In this document: piece by piece, positions 10,058 to 59,140 of the stretch
How the letters are laid out: the number at the start of each line of letters is the position of its first letter
Numbering within the stretch: the first letter of the stretch is position 1
Source: Bacteroidales bacterium
Lineage (GTDB): Bacteria > Bacteroidota > Bacteroidia > Bacteroidales > WCHB1-69
Direction: 5' to 3'
Length of the DNA: 64,000 nt
Assembly: GCA_045130275.1 (NCBI GenBank)
Contig: JBGUPL010000029.1
Location: 17,452 to 81,451 of the forward strand
The notes under the pieces: model-generated
Told to the model about the DNA's origin: nothing
Databases searched by the model: none
The model's input: the letters and a program-made list of their open reading frames with translations, nothing else
Made by a program: the position numbers and the translations under genes

Positions 10058-13000
10058 CTATTTACTAATCCCTTTTACTTTCTCCTGTAATTTCTGAAAC
10101 ACGACAAACAACACCGGCACGGTAAGCAGCAAGCCGAGCGTGCCGAACAGCATTCCACCGACCACGCAGACCCCGATGGTGCGGCTGCCGTTGGCGCCCA
10201 CGCCCGAGGCGAACATCAGAGGCAGCATGCCGATAATCATCGTCATCGAGGTCATCAGGATGGGACGCAGACGCACTTTGGCGCTGCTGAGTGCCGCCTC
10301 GGCGAGCGACATCCCCTCCCTGCGTGCCTTCGAGGCGTACTCGGTGAGCAATATGGCCGTTTTCGACAGCAGACCCACCAGCATCACCATCCCGATCTGC
10401 ATGTAGATGTTGTTCTCCACGCCGAACAGCTTGGCAAACAGCAAACTGCCCGCCAGACCGAAGGGCACCGACAGCATTACCGATAGCGGGATGAAGAGAC
10501 TTTCGTAGAGAGCCACCATCACAAGATAGGCGAACACGATGCATATCAGGAAGATGAAGATCACTCTGCCGGAGGTCTGGCTCTCCTCGCGGGTGATGCC
10601 GCCAAACTCAATGCTATAGCCCACGGGCAGCTCCTTCGCGGCGGTCTCCTGGATGGCCTTGATGGCACGACCTGAACTGCTGCCCTCTGCCACGCTGCCC
10701 GAAACATCAATGCTGGGGAACATGTTGAAACTGTTGATGGACTGCGGCATGTACTCCTTGGTGAGGGTGACGAACTGGTTGATGGGCATCATCTCGCCGC
10801 TTTCGGAACGAACAAAAAGACTCGCCAATGACTCGGGTCGGTTACGGTCGGAGGGCCGGAGCTGCAAATCCACCTGATACACCTTGTTGTATTTGTTGAA
10901 GTTGGAGATGTAGTCGCCGCCCAAGTAAGCCCCCATCTCGTTGAGGACGGTGGAAGGTGCGACCCCCATCTTCTTGCACCGCGCCACATCCAAATCCACG
11001 CGGTACTGCGGATAGTTGACATCGTAGTTCGAGTAGGTCTCGCCGATTTCTGGGCGCTCGCTGAGCTTATCCATAAAACGGGTGGTGATCGCGTGCAACG
11101 TTTTGGCATCCTGCCCGTTGCGGCCCTGCACCGAGAACTCGAAACCGCCGTTGCCGCCATAGCCCTCCACCATGCCCGGTTCCGAGACGAAGCTTTGCGC
11201 CTCCGTTTCCTGGGACAAAATCGCGTCTATTTTCTCCATGATGGCGGAAGAGGAGTGCGCTTTTCCTCGGCGTTCTTTCCATGGTTTCAGCTGAATGAAG
11301 ATGTTGGCACCGGCTCCGACGCCCACCACGCCGCCGACATCCTGCACCTCGGGCAACTCGCGGATCTTGTCGCAATTACGGTTCATCAGATCGAAAGTCT
11401 TGTTGGCCGTATATCCCGACGGCGGCGTAAGGTCCACGAAGAGCGTGCCCATGTCCTCGTTGGGGATAAAGCCCGTGGGCACCACTTTGAAAAGGATGCC
11501 GAACAGCAGCAATGTGACCGCCACACTGCCGATCGTAAGCCATTTGCGGCCAAGCAGCCAGCGGACCATATTGGCGTAATGTTTTAACAGGGCGGAGAAG
11601 GTTACATCGTAGGCATTTTTGATTCGATCGGACACCGCCTTTGTAGGGGCGAATGATGATTCGCCCCTTGAATCAAACGGTTTCAAAATCAATGCGCACA
11701 ATGCTGGTGACAATGTCAGCGCGTTGACCAACGAGATGCCCACCGCGACAGCCATCGTCAGACCGAACTGTTTGAAGAAGATGCCGGTGGTGCCGCCCAC
11801 AAAGGCGACGGGGATGAAGATGACCATAAATACCAGCGTGGTGGTGAACAGCGTGACGGAAAGACCGCTCATGGCTTCCTCCGTGGCATTACGGGCGGAG
11901 GTTGTAGAGACGCGCCATGGCACGTCTCTACTTTGCCTCGTTTTTACCGCCTCCACCACCACGATGGAGTCATCGACCACGGTGCCGATGACCAGCACCA
12001 ACGCAAAGAGCGTCAGCAGGTTGACGGAGAATCCCGCCACCTTCATAAAGGCGAAAGTGCCGATGAGCGAGACAACGATGCCGACGGCGGGAATCAGCGT
12101 GGCGCGGAAATCCTGCAGGAAGAAGAGCACCACGACCAATACCAGCAGAATGGCAATGACGAGCGTCAGAATCACCTCGCGGATGGAGGCGAAAAGGAAG
12201 TCGTTGGTGTTGTCGAAGGTGACGATTTTCACGTCCTTGGGCAGCGATTTCTCGGTTTCGGCCAGCAGTTTGTCGATTTCGAGGTTGATTTTGGTAGCGT
12301 TGGAGCCGGCCATCTGGCTCACCGAGCCCATCACGCCCGGATGCCCGTTGATGCTGTTGATGTAGTCGTAATCCGACTGTCCTAACTCCACATCCGCCAC
12401 ATCCTTCAGCAGCAGCTCCTCGCCGGTGGGCAGCGAGGCAATCACAAGGTTCTCGAACTCCGACACCTCGGTTTTGCGGCCCGTATAGCGCAGCATATAT
12501 TGGAACACATTGTCGGAGTTGCTGCCCAACGAACCGACCGAGGCCTCGATGTTCTGTTCGGCCAAGACGGTGGATATGTCGCTGGGCATCAGCTTGTGAC
12601 GCGTCATCACGTCGGGTTTGAGCCAGATGCGCAGGGCGTATTGCGCACCCCACACCTCCACCTTGCCCACGCCCTTGATGCGCAGCAGGGCGGGACGCAG
12701 ATTGTTGTAGAAATAGTTGCTGAGGAAGTTCTCGTCGTAGGTGCCGTTGGGACTCTCCAGCGCGATGATGCGGAGCTGGCCGGGTTGCCGTTTCTCGGTG
12801 GCCACGCCCGTCTGCAGCACCTCGGCGGGCAGCTGCGCCTGTGCCTGGATGACGCGGTTCTGCACGTTCACGGCGGCCATATCGGCATTGGCGCCCTGCT
12901 CGAAGTAGATGGTGATGCTGGCCGAGCCGTTGCTGGCCGACGAGGTCATGTAGGTCATTCCCTCCACCCCGTTGATGGCCTCCTCCAACGGCATCACCAC

Positions 13001-13183
13001 GCTCTTATGCACCGTTTCGGCACTCGCGCCTGGATAGCTCGCCCACACGTAGATGGCCGGCGGCGCGATGTCGGGATAGCGCTCCACCGGCAGCGACAGC
13101 AACGAAATCACCCCCAACAGCACGATGAACACGCTGATGACGAGGGAGAGCAAGGGTCTGGATATAAAAGTCTTAATATTCAT
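10058..13183 (-). CDS. efflux RND transporter permease subunit (AcrB/HAE1 family)
   Basis: 1041 aa, 12-TM architecture, conserved VIGTVVDDSIVVVE and GMLPLMFASGVGA regions. Contains two in-frame palindromic elements. Confidence 0.95.
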   Translation of the reverse strand: MNIKTFISRPLLSLVISVFIVLLGVISLLSLPVERYPDIAPPAIYVWASYPGASAETVHKSVVMPLEEAINGVEGMTYMTSSASNGSASITIYFEQGANADMAAVNVQNRVIQAQAQLPAEVLQTGVATEKRQPGQLRIIALESPNGTYDENFLSNYFYNNLRPALLRIKGVGKVEVWGAQYALRIWLKPDVMTRHKLMPSDISTVLAEQNIEASVGSLGSNSDNVFQYMLRYTGRKTEVSEFENLVIASLPTGEELLLKDVADVELGQSDYDYINSINGHPGVMGSVSQMAGSNATKINLEIDKLLAETEKSLPKDVKIVTFDNTNDFLFASIREVILTLVIAILLVLVVVLFFLQDFRATLIPAVGIVVSLIGTFAFMKVAGFSVNLLTLFALVLVIGTVVDDSIVVVEAVKTRQSRDVPWRVSTTSARNATEEAMSGLSVTLFTTTLVFMVIFIPVAFVGGTTGIFFKQFGLTMAVAVGISLVNALTLSPALCALILKPFDSRGESSFAPTKAVSDRIKNAYDVTFSALLKHYANMVRWLLGRKWLTIGSVAVTLLLFGILFKVVPTGFIPNEDMGTLFVDLTPPSGYTANKTFDLMNRNCDKIRELPEVQDVGGVVGVGAGANIFIQLKPWKERRGKAHSSSAIMEKIDAILSQETEAQSFVSEPGMVEGYGGNGGFEFSVQGRNGQDAKTLHAITTRFMDKLSERPEIGETYSNYDVNYPQYRVDLDVARCKKMGVAPSTVLNEMGAYLGGDYISNFNKYNKVYQVDLQLRPSDRNRPESLASLFVRSESGEMMPINQFVTLTKEYMPQSINSFNMFPSIDVSGSVAEGSSSGRAIKAIQETAAKELPVGYSIEFGGITREESQTSGRVIFIFLICIVFAYLVMVALYESLFIPLSVMLSVPFGLAGSLLFAKLFGVENNIYMQIGMVMLVGLLSKTAILLTEYASKARREGMSLAEAALSSAKVRLRPILMTSMTMIIGMLPLMFASGVGANGSRTIGVCVVGGMLFGTLGLLLTVPVLFVVFQKLQEKVKGISK
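11645..11668. repeat. 24-nt palindromic element AGGGGCGAAT-GATG-ATTCGCCCCT in-frame within the RND pump gene
   Basis: 10-bp perfect stem. Same family as 34737-34760 and 59097-59119. Encodes RGESSFAPT in the pump. Confidence 0.8.
11904..11931. repeat. 28-nt palindromic element GTAGAGACGCGCCATGGCACGTCTCTAC in-frame within the RND pump gene
   Basis: 14-bp stem with one mismatch. The near-identical copy at 55176-55203 is in the opposite orientation. Encodes SRDVPWRVST. Confidence 0.8.
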
Positions 13184-19245: not shown

Positions 19246-19413
19246 TTTTGTGTTTTTGTAGTCAATAATATAAGGTTGCGATTTTATGTATTATCCAAAA
19301 TTCATAGACTGAAGAATTTACGTTGGACTGTTTGAGGCAATCAGAAAAATGGAAACATCTGATTTCTCTTGTGGACGAAGCTGCTCAAATGTCTTAACCA
19401 ATCCTTGAAATTC

Positions 19414-19469
19414 GTTCATCATAATGAACAAAAATCAAAAATTTTCCATTTTGTTCATTATAGTGAACA
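19414..19469. promoter_or_regulatory. two operator-like palindromes (GTTCAT-N4-ATGAAC; TGTTCA-N6-TGAACA) upstream of the ATPase gene
   Basis: Sites at 19414-19429 and 19452-19469, immediately 5' of the -7 box TATTTTTG at 19479-19486. Confidence 0.45.
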
Positions 19470-19506
19470 AAAAAATAGTATTTTTGCGCGAGAAAAATAT
19501 TGAGAC

Positions 19507-25141: not shown

Positions 25142-25457
25142 GGGACTCAAGCTTCGCAAGTATGCCTTAGACTGTTTGAGGAAATTTGTCTTTGAACGGA
25201 GGAGATTCCGCCAGTTCCTATCGTCACTGGCGGAATGGTGCGCCACATTCAAGAAAAAAGGGGGAAAAAGATGGGCGGCGGTCGTGAAACTTCAGGCAAC
25301 GGCAGCTTTTTCCCCGCCGCCCATCTTCTTCCCCTTGGTCTCATACGGAGGTGCGCACCATTCCGCCGCGAACGCAGTGAGCGAGCGGAATCTCCAACGG
25401 AAAATCACGAAAACACGCCAACAGCTGCAACAAAAAGAGCTTGCGAAACTTAAATAA
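25135..25457. repeat. 323-nt self-complementary long-hairpin MITE-like element, copy B (inverted relative to copy A)
   Basis: Its reverse complement aligns end to end with 1008-1330. It overlaps the stop codon of the protease gene. Confidence 0.8.
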
Positions 25458-29194: not shown

Positions 29195-29270
29195 CCGTTT
29201 TGAAAGGGGTGCCGGAAGGCTGAGATCAGACCCGTTGAACCTGATGCGGATAATGCCGCCGTAGGGAAAT
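29195..29270 (+). promoter_or_regulatory. TPP (thiamine pyrophosphate, THI-box) riboswitch
   Basis: GGGGUGC..GGCUGAGA..ACCC..GAACCUGAUGCGGAUAAUGCCGCCGUAGGGAA matches the conserved TPP aptamer core almost position for position. Confidence 0.9.
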
Positions 29271-29376
29271 TCACAACGTCCTCTTATCCCTCTTTCAGTG
29301 TGTTTAATTTATTAATAACCAAACTGTTAGAGCTATGTTTAAAAGTTTAGAGTTTAGCGTTTATGGTTTAAGGCGT

Positions 29377-33935: not shown

Positions 33936-34721
33936 ATGATGAAACCAAAGATTGTTATCGGAAACTGGAAAATGAACAAGGACTTCGAAGAAGCTGAAGA
34001 CCTTATCACCAAAATAGAGGAAGAACTGGCTGATTATCAGCTCCAGACGGAGGTTGTGCTTTGTCCGCCTGCCATCTACGCCGAATTGGTCACCGACCAT
34101 GCCAGCCTGGAGGACAGCCATTTCTACGCTGGTTTGCAGAATGTGAGCGAATATGAGAATGGTGCATATACTGGAGAAGTCTCCGCGGAGATGCTTGCTT
34201 CCATGGAGGTCGATTTCTGCATCGTGGGACATTCGGAACGTCGCAAATATTTTGGTGAAACGGATGAGATTGTACTCAAGAAGATGCTTCGACTCCTTGA
34301 TAACCAGATCGTTCCGGTGATGTGCTGCGGTGAGACGCTGGAGGAACGCAAGGCTGGCAAACATTTTGAGGTGGTGCAGAAGCAGATTGAGGCCACCATT
34401 TGCACGCTCACGCCCGAGCAGTTGGAGCGCACGATGATCGCCTATGAGCCTATTTGGGCCATCGGCACGGGCGAGACAGCCACCCCGGAGCAGGCTCAGG
34501 AAATGCTCGCTTTCATCCGTTCCCTCATCGAAAAGAAATTCGGCACCGAACTCGCCGTTTTCACCTATATCCTTTACGGCGGCAGCTGCAATGCCAAAAA
34601 CGCCCTCGAACTCTTCTCTCAACCTGATGTTGACGGCGGACTCATTGGCGGCGCCTCCCTCAAACCCGACGATTTCATCAAGATCATTGAGGCTGCCGAA
34701 ACGGTGATTAAAGATAATTAG
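33936..34721 (+). CDS. tpiA: triose-phosphate isomerase
   Basis: IGNWKMN, VGHSERR, AYEPIWAIGTG and GGASLK motifs. Confidence 0.95.
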   Translation: MMKPKIVIGNWKMNKDFEEAEDLITKIEEELADYQLQTEVVLCPPAIYAELVTDHASLEDSHFYAGLQNVSEYENGAYTGEVSAEMLASMEVDFCIVGHSERRKYFGETDEIVLKKMLRLLDNQIVPVMCCGETLEERKAGKHFEVVQKQIEATICTLTPEQLERTMIAYEPIWAIGTGETATPEQAQEMLAFIRSLIEKKFGTELAVFTYILYGGSCNAKNALELFSQPDVDGGLIGGASLKPDDFIKIIEAAETVIKDN

Positions 34722-34736
34722 GAAATATGTGTCGCT

Positions 34737-34760
34737 AGGGGCGAATAATTATTCGCCCCT
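34737..34760. repeat. perfect 24-nt palindrome AGGGGCGAATAATTATTCGCCCCT (intergenic copy)
   Basis: 12+12 perfect palindrome between tpiA and the OmpA-family gene. Same family as 11645-11668 and 59097-59119. Confidence 0.85.
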
Positions 34761-34788
34761 ACACCCAATTGTAAATCTCCAACCGTCA

Positions 34789-54100: not shown

Positions 54101-57100
54101 GCGGAGTGGGTGAATTTGAGAGGGAAGACCCGTACAATCACCTATCCTGTGACGAAAGACGACATCGGCGGTATGAGTGTCCATCTGCTGTGCATCCATC
54201 AGAACAATAAGGAAGAGGAAACTCGTTCAGTCTCCGTCACCGACAAGATGAAAGACATCCATTTCGAATTCCTACGCTTCCGCGACAAGACGCTGCCGGG
54301 AAGTCCGGAGGAGTATCAGGTTCGCCTCGCCGACAAAGACGGGAAGCCTGTTTCCGCCGAACTTCTGTGCTCAATGTACGACATGGCGTTGGATGCCTTG
54401 GGAAGCCACAACTACCATTCCTTGAGATTTTATACTCCGTGGAACAATGCCGATGGCAGTTTCCGTGAACTGTATTTTGAAACTTCCTCCAGCGAGCACA
54501 ACTATCGGAACATCTCCTTGTACTATACCGTCCACATGTCTGGAGATTGGCTGAGGTTTAACCCAGGTAGCTGCACGCGTTACTATGGAAAGATGTTTTC
54601 CGTGCGCGGCAACCGCAGCGACGGCGCCCAGACGATAGTGGATGGTGTGCGGGTTAGAGGCTATGACAATGGTGTTGATTATTCTGAAGATGAGGTGGTT
54701 CTGAATGTTGTCGAGGATAATATTGCAGTTGAGGAGAGTGCTGTGATGTACGATGCGGCCGCTCCTCCTATGCCAGCCGCCAAGAGAGTTGCAGGTGGGG
54801 CATCCGACGCTCCCGCCGAGCAGATCCGCACCAACTTCAACGAGACTGCCTTCTTCTACCCGCAGCTGCGCACCGACGAGCGCGGCGATGTCTATATCAG
54901 CTTCACCATGCCCGACGCGCTCACCAAGTGGAAGATGCAAGGCGTGGCCCATAATCCCGCTCTGATGACCGGCCGTTTCGAGAAGTTCGTGCAAACCGCC
55001 AAGGACGTGATGATCGTGCCCAACGCCCCGCGCTTCCTCCGCGAGGGCGACACCATGGACTTCTCCGCCAAGGTGGTGAACATGAGCGGCCGGAACATTT
55101 GCGGCTACGTGACACTGCAGATGTTCAACGCCGTGAACAACCAACCCGTTTCGATGATCATTACGGATTCGGACCGTAGAGACGTGTCATGGCGCGTCTC
55201 TACAGAGGGAAATCAACAATATGAAATTCCCGCCAACTCCTCCTCCGAAATCCATTTCCGCATCGTCGTCCCCGAGGACGTTCCCGCCGTCACCTACCGT
55301 ATCGTCGCGCACAACACCGACCCGCAGGAGGTGGCCGGCGACGGAGAGGAGAAGACCCTCCCGGTGCTCACCAACCGCATGATGGTGACGGAAACGATGC
55401 CGTTCTATATCTCGGGGAAAGGCTCGAAATCGTTTACCTTCAATAAATTGCGGGATGCATTCGGCGCGACGGCCAGCAATACCCTCAAACATTACCGCCT
55501 TACCGTGGAATGCACGCCCAACCCTGTCTGGTACGCCATCCAGGCGATGCCCTACATGATGGAATACCCGCACGAGTGCAACGAACAGCGCTTCAGCCGC
55601 TACTACGCCAACGCCCTCGCCACCCACATCCTGAAGGCCAACCCCGTCATCGAGGAGGTCTTCAACCGCTGGCAGGTGGAGAGTCCCGACGCCTTCTGCT
55701 CCGCCTTGGAGAAGAACCAGGAACTCAAGCAGGTGATACTGGAGGAGACCCCGTGGGTGCTCGACGCGCAACGCGAAGGGGCCAACAAGCAGGCACTTGC
55801 CGCGATGTTCGACTTCAAACGGATGTCCAAGGAGGAGACTGCCACGCTTAAGAAACTGCAGCAGGCGCAGAACGGCGACGGCGGCTGGCCGTGGTTCTCC
55901 GGCGGCAAGAGCTGCGACTTCATCACACGGCACATCGTGGCGGGCTTCGGTCACCTCAAAGCCCTCGGTGTCAGCACCGATGTGGCTAATTCCACGCTCC
56001 GCAGCGCTGTCTCCTACATGGACGGGCAGATGTACCAACGCTACCTTGACCGCAAGAAATACCACTACACTTACGTCGATGAAACGCACTACCTCTACGC
56101 TCGCAGTTTCTACAAAGACAAGATATCCGCCAAGCACAAAGTCGCCTACGACACCTGCTACAAGGCTTTGTTGAGGGGTTGGAAAGACGAAACCTTCTAC
56201 ACGCAGGCGATGATCGCGCTCACCGCTTGGCGCAACGGCGATCAGAAGGTGGCGAAGGAAATTGTGGCCTACCTCAAGAGCATGGCCCAGCATGACGAGG
56301 AGATGGGCATGTTTTGGAAGAAGCAGGGTGGGGGATGGTTTTGGTACGAGCAACCCGTGGAGCGACAGGCGATGCTGATCGAGGCGTTTCACACCATCAC
56401 ACCAGAAGACGAAGAGTCGCTGGCACAGATGCAGTTATGGCTCCTCAAACAGAAGCAGACCCAGCACTGGAGCACCACGAAATCGACCACGGAAGCCATC
56501 TACGCGCTGCTGCTGAACAAGACGCTCGTAGCTGAGGACAAGACTGTTGCTGTCACCGTGGGGAACGTGCGTCTGCCGGATGAGACCGTACAGACCGAGG
56601 CGGGCACCGGCTATTTCAAGAAAGCATGGACAGGCGAGGAAATCACCGCCGACAAGGCCAATGTTCGCATCGAGAAAGGCACCGACGGTCCCGCCTGGGG
56701 TGGCCTCTACTGGCAGTATTTCGAGAATCTCGACAAAATCACCCGCAGCGACGACAAGAATCTGGTCATTGAGAAGCAACTCTACAAGGTGGAGAACACC
56801 GACAAGGGCGAAGTGCTGAAGGCCATTTCAGAGAATCAGCCGCTGCAAAAGGGCGACAAGGTGCGCGTGAGGGTGGTCATTACCGCCGACCGCGACATGG
56901 AGTTCGTGCACCTCAAAGACATGCGCGCTGCCACCTTCGAGCCCGTCAACGTCTTCTCGCAGTACAAATACCAGGATGGATTGTGGTACTATGAGGCCAC
57001 CAAAGACGCGGCCACCCACTTCTTCATCGACTGGATGCCGAAAGGCAAGTACGTTTTCGAATACACCCTCTTCGCCACGCAGTCGGGCGACTTCAGCAAC

Positions 57101-59025: not shown

Positions 59026-59096
59026 TCTTTGTCAAATTTCACCGCAAAAATACGATTTTTATTGGATTGCGTTAGCAGAAATCCCAATCCCCGTTG

Positions 59097-59140
59097 GGGC
59101 GAATAATTATTCACCCCTACGCGGAAATTCGCCCCTACAA
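59097..59140. repeat. GGGGCGAATAATTATTCACCCCT palindrome plus an extra right arm (GAAATTCGCCCCTAC)
   Basis: Same family as 34737-34760. Overlaps the 3' end of the 59107-59439 gene and is probably its terminator. Confidence 0.75.

Follow-up and report, generated by a model that had tools for sequence, protein, structure and literature searches.

The stretch analyzed here, 64,000 nucleotides of contig JBGUPL010000029.1 from a ruminant-gut Bacteroidales (hereafter, the window), carries a 28-nucleotide (nt) hairpin in two unrelated genes, one encoding an efflux pump and the other an alpha-2-macroglobulin (A2M). The hairpin, GTAGAGACGCGCCATGGCACGTCTCTAC, lies at 11904-11931, and its reverse complement, with 1 nt changed, recurs at 55176-55203; each copy is in frame with its host gene and encodes ~10 residues. 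We propose, with a probability of roughly 0.8, that this hairpin is a 'double-foot' repetitive extragenic palindrome (REP) of the GTAG type, the class associated with REP-associated tyrosine transposases (RAYTs; HUH-Y1) of subclass 2.4, or Group 4. The two host genes and their hairpin sites are as follows.

10058..13183, minus strand: host gene 1, encoding an intact RND efflux permease (AcrB/HAE1 family, 1041 aa); Pfam ACR_tran end-to-end match (E 1e-284)
11904..11931, read on the minus strand: putative double-foot REP hairpin, GAGACG family, copy 1; (S)RDVPWRVST, pump residues 418-427; 12-bp stem, CATG loop
51194..57178 (ORF start 51134/51194), plus strand: host gene 2, bacterial alpha-2-macroglobulin family protein; ~1994 aa, intact; A2M, MG2 and bMG10 domains
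55176..55203, read on the plus strand: putative double-foot REP hairpin, GAGACG family, copy 2; (R)RDVSWRVST, A2M site 1; apex type as copy 1, 1 nt changed
55472..55480, plus strand: A2M site 2, empty allele; GCC AGC AAT = ASN; ~90 residues downstream of site 1

Both window copies conform to the pattern GTAGAGACG-N10-CGTCTCTAC, on the minus strand in the pump gene and on the plus strand in the A2M gene, for which the chance expectation was 0.00 matches in dinucleotide-preserving shuffles of the window; a relaxed stem pattern also gave none. They are translated in the same phase, xGT AGA GAC ... GTC TCT ACx, which yields the near-equal peptides SRDVPWRVST and RRDVSWRVST. The initial annotation had reported a 28-nt palindrome, 1 nt changed between copies, in frame within two unrelated genes, and its coordinates, peptides and intact host open reading frames (ORFs; 1041 aa and ~1993 aa, the latter ~1994 aa here) were all confirmed. 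Folded as single-stranded DNA, the sense strands adopt a 12-bp stem closed by a CATG loop, with energies of -10.7 to -12.9 kcal/mol (z -3.4 to -4.6), and the antisense strands reach -9.1 to -10.8 kcal/mol (z -2.7 to -3.2); the three stem mismatches of the window copies are all U.G wobbles on the sense strand. With a 28-bp unit, a 12-bp stem and a 4-nt loop, the element has the size and stem-loop form of a REP (a palindrome of 20-40 bp), and the feet of both copies read GTAG...CTAC, as is characteristic of GTAG-type REPs. The window holds five double-foot hairpins in total, three of which are translated (in the efflux pump and the alpha-2-macroglobulin).

An Rfam scan of the window found no family at the hairpins, its only match being a thiamine pyrophosphate (TPP) riboswitch elsewhere, and neither window copy is followed by the T-run expected of an intrinsic terminator. 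A reading of the hairpin as paired type IIS (CGTCTC) restriction sites was dropped, the site being absent from the sister family described below. In contigs assembled from RNA runs of ruminant gut samples, depth rose to 700-2200-fold on 11904-11939 compared with ~20-fold on the flanks, a depth that is uninformative on processing and to which DNA carry-over may have contributed. From this spike and from the loose ends of the contigs, unrelated sequence begins at 11901-3 and at 11931-6. The pile-up therefore indicates that many further copies exist in the community, and it delimits the repeat unit. One RNA contig spans the filled pump site, and the hairpin occurs in many contexts among the RNA contigs.

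Filled and empty sites in the pump and A2M genes

Relative to residues 344-499 of E. coli AcrB, the pump has 6 additional residues in the stretch after the VVVE motif, in agreement with the lengthening of about 6 residues that the initial annotation had reported, and it is longer by the same 6 residues than orthologues in which the site is empty. Among 120 pump orthologues (86-100% identity), the site was empty in 89/120 and filled in 31/120. The empty loop, VK-A[KR]-[LF]DEG[YC]-TSAR, is equal in length to those of AcrB and CmeB, both of which are without the insert, and this short loop is the ancestral state of the pump. The inserts of the 31 filled orthologues occupy exactly one place and encode varied peptides (RDVPWRVS, RDAKFCVS, RDAINRVS, RDVARNVS); their DNA consists of GTAGAGACG, 10 nt and CGTCTCTAC, with a self-complementary centre, the loci L120 and L121 being without the GTAG foot. 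In the filled allele, 21 nt (GCC AAG TTG GAT GAG GGC TAC) are replaced by 39 nt (ACG AGG CAA GGT AGA GAC ... GTC TCT ACA), a net gain of 18 nt. The junction CGN CAA RGT AGA GAC..TCT ACA ACC is common to all filled pump alleles but L120/L121 (CTA GAT), which points to one original insertion. A CTAC is present within the empty pump allele (GGC TAC), an observation that is suggestive only.

The pump gene contains a second insert, described below, and by homology to AcrB and CmeB the two follow TM4 (VVVE) and TM6 (LSPALCAL), positions that we take to be cytoplasmic loops on the published topology of AcrB. An AlphaFold model of the pump, built with 43 close orthologues, had a mean pLDDT of 37.8 and was too poor for use; its helices are interrupted at 420-426 and 500-513, where the two inserts lie, but no weight is placed on this agreement. 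The neighbourhood of the pump operon varies between close orthologues (L120/L121 upstream; L118/L119/L324), with an Eco57I-type methylase, SLFN/AlbA_2 and LRR genes, or AraC regulators as neighbours, case by case, and the operon appears to lie in a variable region.

A2M site 1 was filled in essentially every orthologue from 94% down to ~57% identity and empty at <=47% identity. At least 15 centre types were present among the filled orthologues, the stem being kept through paired changes, and some copies have decayed (e.g., GD....VA). Site 2, which is empty in the window, is filled in many orthologues (L248, L252, L253 and L259-L262 among the loci) by G-RD....VST, through a replacement of 9 nt by 33 nt (net +24). 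Decay at site 2 has left tandem arrays of 21-nt half-hairpins, (DA[IM]NRN...)n, in L250, L257, L264 and L265. Many orthologues carry a further hairpin ~10 nt past the A2M stop (L246:9166, L247:5912, L248:11991, L253:6685, L265:12037, L270:1628), and none was found in the window from 57179 onward. The alignment of orthologues, which the initial annotation had proposed as a check for empty sites, thus recovered them in both genes, and these alleles, together with the many further copies, uphold its view that a palindromic repeat has colonised coding sequence in frame. The target-site duplication that it had suggested seeking was found neither at the pump site nor at A2M site 2, where a few target bases are replaced instead.

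The second pump palindrome, which the initial annotation had overlooked, belongs to a sister family, GTAGGGGCGAA-N6-TTCGCCCCTAC, and its features in the window are listed here.

11643..11670, read on the minus strand: second in-frame double-foot hairpin of the pump; SRGESSFAPT, residues 505-514, directly after 'LSPALCALILKP'
34735..34762, no strand assigned: GGGGCG double-foot family, intergenic; copy located 14 nt beyond the stop codon of ORF 33936-34721
59093..59138, no strand assigned: GGGGCG double-foot family, intergenic; full copy 59093-59120 and half copy 59127-59138

On its coding strand, the pump copy reads TCA AGG GGC GAA TCA TCA TTC GCC CCT ACA, with one foot decayed to CAAG, and its counterpart in close pump orthologues has both feet perfect. 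At the same place, other pump orthologues carry a hairpin of the GAGACG family in another phase (SVET....SLQ), and still others carry neither. The sister family has 35 copies in IMG/VR, 16/35 of them within long ORFs.

Other features of the window lie apart from these genes. The TPP riboswitch is at 29195-29286 (plus strand; Rfam RF00059, 64.7 bits, exceeding the gathering score). An element of ~110 nt, separate from the hairpin family, occurs in two copies of opposite orientation at 1110-1225 and 25240-25355, in which 20-nt perfect arms (GGGAAGAAGATGGGCGGCGG) enclose a 32-nt loop. At 19411-19472 is an AT-rich 30-nt inverted repeat, 80% complementary with a 1-nt gap, within which smaller palindromes are nested.

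The hairpin family and its association with RAYT genes

We searched for the family, defined by the conserved feet and a free 10-nt centre, in IMG/VR and in bacterial contigs representing one genome per species. The pattern matched 116 stretches in IMG/VR and >120 in the genome representatives (>236 across both collections). Across phyla, the family keeps a conserved foot of 9 bp that begins with GTAG and ends with CTAC, and the centres are nearly always self-complementary, with 112 types among 271 non-redundant copies. Among the genome matches listed, about half of the hosts were Bacteroidota and ~30% Cyanobacteria, the rest including Chloroflexi, Acidobacteria and Ignavibacteria. At the genome loci, 54/128 copies followed the stop of a long ORF by no more than 60 nt and 22/128 were inside ORFs of >=200 aa; in these copies, sampled outside the source genome, the hairpin is repeated, mostly extragenic and near gene 3' ends, as REPs are. 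Over the viral and genome loci together, 51/280 copies were intragenic (a share of ~17-18% by either count), 39 of them read as VET....SLQ and 12 as RD....VS, and none, by necessity, in the phase that reads TAG. One IMG/VR contig (L083:3406-3560) has four hairpin copies in tandem with a 42-nt period inside a 569-aa ORF, their feet mutated to GTAC.

A motif scan for HUH-Y1 proteins found seven ORFs in the 120 hairpin-selected genome loci (0.85 Mb) and none in 2.2 Mb of other loci. Six of the seven (L136, L137, L159, L178, L195, L202) have the motifs NHxH, WQ and YIxNNP, and in these 6/120 loci a RAYT gene of the subclass-2.4 type stands beside a hairpin or contains one in frame; at L137 identical hairpins are present on both flanks of the gene. 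When three of these six ORFs were scanned against NCBIfam, the sole match was REP_Tyr_transpos (E 1e-13 to 1e-18), and the one of these three ORFs that was compared with the PDB matched only 4ER8, TnpA-REP. The seventh ORF (L182), with NHIH/YIHANP and a strong Pfam Y1_Tnp match (E 3e-16), may be an ordinary IS200-type transposase. The RAYT motif was not found in 1.0 Mb of hairpin-bearing viral contigs.

Turnover at fixed sites and its possible causes

In a pump tree computed with the site masked, the filled and empty alleles and four centre types were scattered, even among near-identical sequences. Between two loci from different samples, one filled (L118) and one empty (L324), there were 12 substitutions over 9,123 nt, 11/12 of which fell in the site patch together with an 18-nt indel, so that the difference at the site is confined to <=45 nt, with one single-nucleotide polymorphism elsewhere. 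Pump centres differ at up to 10/12 positions between sisters with ~3% flank divergence (L326 vs L327), and at A2M site 1 the centres likewise differ while the junctions are kept. Centre types are not bound to particular sites, and the discrete types seen at one site turn up again elsewhere and in further taxa. Copies within one locus were of the same type in 20/54 pairs compared with 1.5 expected, a value that 0/2000 shuffles reached, and the two A2M sites of one protein agreed in type in 7/20 cases compared with 1.4 expected, a figure inflated by relatedness.

From these patterns we infer that the apex is replaced by templated copying from other copies and that whole alleles are moved by short-patch recombination. 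More tentatively, and with rather less than even confidence, we suggest that in-frame REP sites may be fixed 'landing pads', at which the hairpin is rewritten in place, its apex is swapped between types that circulate within the genome, a sister family can take over in another phase, and filled alleles spread between near-identical strains in patches of <=45 nt. If so, the sites would record a templated exchange of hairpin cassettes, via RAYT strand transfer or hairpin-primed template switching, and 4-10 residues in surface loops of host proteins would be continually recoded. The sequence of events that we envisage begins with a RAYT that would recognise the GTAG foot and the stem on single-stranded DNA and would move or copy the hairpin without target duplication. 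A copy landing in a gene would survive only in a tolerant loop, only in the two phases of GTAG that avoid TAG (RD....VST and VET....SLQ), and only if the net change in length is divisible by three (+18 and +24 nt in the present cases, in which a few target bases are replaced). The fixed site would then persist, with other genomic copies serving as templates from which its apex is overwritten, and filled and empty alleles would pass between strains in recombination patches of very small size. Most likely, the peptide that results is a neutral passenger.

Several observations count against this interpretation and against the REP assignment on which it builds. No RAYT motif was found in the 64-kb window, the part of the source genome that the scan covered. 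None of the six YIxNNP ORFs exceeds the curated Pfam cut-off, and the three that were scanned fall below the NCBIfam equivalog cut-off. Rather than a clean 28-nt insertion, what separates filled from empty alleles is a replacement of 21 nt by 39 nt in the pump and of 9 nt by 33 nt at A2M site 2, so that the insertion chemistry is unreadable from the junctions. Shared ancestry or local duplication could account for part of the concordance of types within loci, and every sequence used for comparison comes from a metagenome assembly. Movement of this family by a RAYT is not known to have been demonstrated experimentally.

One alternative is that the hairpins spread and are rewritten without a RAYT, by palindrome-driven template switching or by short-patch gene conversion between copies and between strains, the RAYT association being incidental. 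The lack of the motif in both the window and the viral contigs, the messy junctions, the tandem 21-nt and 42-nt slippage arrays, and the confinement of the strain-level difference to <=45 nt would all fit such a process. We nevertheless consider it unlikely, given the enrichment of the motif at hairpins (seven, six of them of the subclass-2.4 type, against none in the larger comparison set) and the 9-bp GTAG foot conserved across phyla, which points to a conserved recognising protein and fits the recognition of GTAG by TnpA-REP (PMC6006769). Somewhat less likely still is that the hairpin is kept as a structural signal of RNA or DNA in long genes (for mRNA stability, processing, attenuation, or as a gyrase or replication site) instead of being a mobile passenger. 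The long occupancy of A2M site 1, with its stem preserved through paired changes, the three U.G mismatches on the sense strand and the existence of RNA contigs with the hairpin are in its favor; however, over 66 non-redundant intragenic copies the sense strand had 11 G.U and 10 A.C mismatches and thus no RNA-sense bias, neither an Rfam match nor a U-tract accompanies the hairpin, the apex types are family-wide alleles rather than site-specific compensations, and the pump site is dispensable, as most orthologues and one of two near-identical strains have no hairpin there.

That RDxxxxVST is a conserved protein motif whose palindromic coding is a coincidence, the circumstance under which the initial annotation would have withdrawn its own proposal, has a probability close to nil. 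Although the reading phase is the same in both window genes, the four central residues vary freely (VPWR, AKFC, AINR, VARN, AMHC, GARP and others) while self-complementarity is kept in the DNA, and this variation of the peptide under a constant palindrome indicates that the pattern is DNA-driven; moreover, 39/51 intragenic copies read the same DNA as VET....SLQ, most copies are intergenic, and orthologues without the insert look functional. Scarcely more probable is an insertion like the Rickettsia palindromic elements (RPEs) or miniature inverted-repeat transposable elements (MITEs), which would place it among in-frame coding invaders of a different family. A palindrome inserted in frame into proteins that are conserved elsewhere does recall the RPEs, which are roughly 100-150 bp in size, and the initial annotation had taken it as their hallmark. 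The resemblance is one of analogy only, and the 28-bp unit with GTAG/CTAC feet falls in the GTAG-REP class. The unit encodes 10 residues, whereas MITEs measure 70-300 bp (PMC3733652); no terminal inverted repeats surround the core, no target-site duplication is present, and the feet and the RAYT association set it apart. Membership in either group was accordingly rejected on the defining features of size, termini and target-site duplication.

Comparison with known systems

In-frame REPs within genes were already described in 2013 and 2018, and the present hairpins are an instance of a described class. The initial annotation was aware of no equivalent for so short a unit in Bacteroidota, but intragenic GTAG/CGTC REPs (PMC3733652) and in-frame double-foot REPs in Bacteroidetes (PMC6006769) are such equivalents. 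A search of the literature library for the exact sequences or peptides gave no match, and a preprint by Bertels and Rainey does not discuss in-place turnover. We found no earlier account of so high a share of intragenic copies, of such long persistence at orthologous codons, of the replacement of the apex and of one family by another at fixed sites, or of the strain-level patch polymorphism. REPs are named and modelled as extragenic, and a sizeable share of the present family lies inside genes. For annotation, this means that RD....VST, VET....SLQ and RGE..FAPT peptides and their length variation are to be read as DNA-driven and not as functional motifs. For evolutionary studies, the same codons are found in nature filled, empty or re-written, and this series of alleles could serve to test RAYT-hairpin movement and in-place overwriting.

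With the RPEs, of which RPE-1 is one, the present hairpins share the in-frame palindromic insertion into conserved proteins, tolerated in surface regions. RPE-1 is far longer than 28 bp and encodes tens of residues. It is without the GTAG double foot and differs in host range from the present family, and we know of no link between RPE-1 and a RAYT.

The closest counterpart is found in the 'double foot' REPs of Quentin et al. (2018), with the form 5' GT[AG]G ... C[TC]AC 3', whose RAYTs form subclass 2.4, equivalent to Group 4 of Bertels (PMC6006769). Members of subclass 2.4, which are known from Cyanobacteria, Bacteroidetes and scattered phyla, are marked by the Y motif YIxNNP and include RAYT genes with REPs in frame inside them (PMC6006769); an equally broad host range was reported for Group 4 RAYTs by Bertels et al. 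(2017) (PMC5581495). The present family resembles these REPs in its long hairpin, its GT[AG]G/C[TC]AC feet and its distribution over Bacteroidetes, Cyanobacteria and other phyla, and its hairpins likewise flank RAYT genes or sit in frame inside them, the RAYTs carrying YIxNNP. It goes beyond that account in that the sequence family is not given there, and in that persistence at orthologous coding sites, apex switching and same-site replacement by a sister family are unreported there (PMC6006769).

Intragenic GTAG/CGTC REPs were described by Di Nocera et al. (2013) in Opitutus terrae, Rickettsia conorii (RPE-4/6), Thauera and others (PMC3733652). Like those repeats, the present ones measure 20-40 bp, leave the reading frame unbroken, have G-T pairs in the stem and lie for the most part just downstream of ORFs. 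In contrast to that survey, where Bacteroidetes appear only under CGTC repeats and families carry the tag at one end, the present family is of the GTAG type in Bacteroidetes and carries the tag at both ends; and whereas many of the earlier intragenic copies are dimers of 20-30 aa, those found here are single 28-bp units of ~10 aa (PMC3733652). The REPIN-RAYT system of Pseudomonas and E. coli (PMC3116915; 4ER8) offers a further parallel, combining a non-autonomous hairpin with a single-copy HUH-Y1 protein that recognises the GTAG foot and forming within-genome sequence populations with a dominant type. REPINs are doublets of ~100 bp that are almost exclusively extragenic (PMC3116915), whereas the present unit is a single symmetric 28-mer with ~17-18% of its sampled copies in genes.

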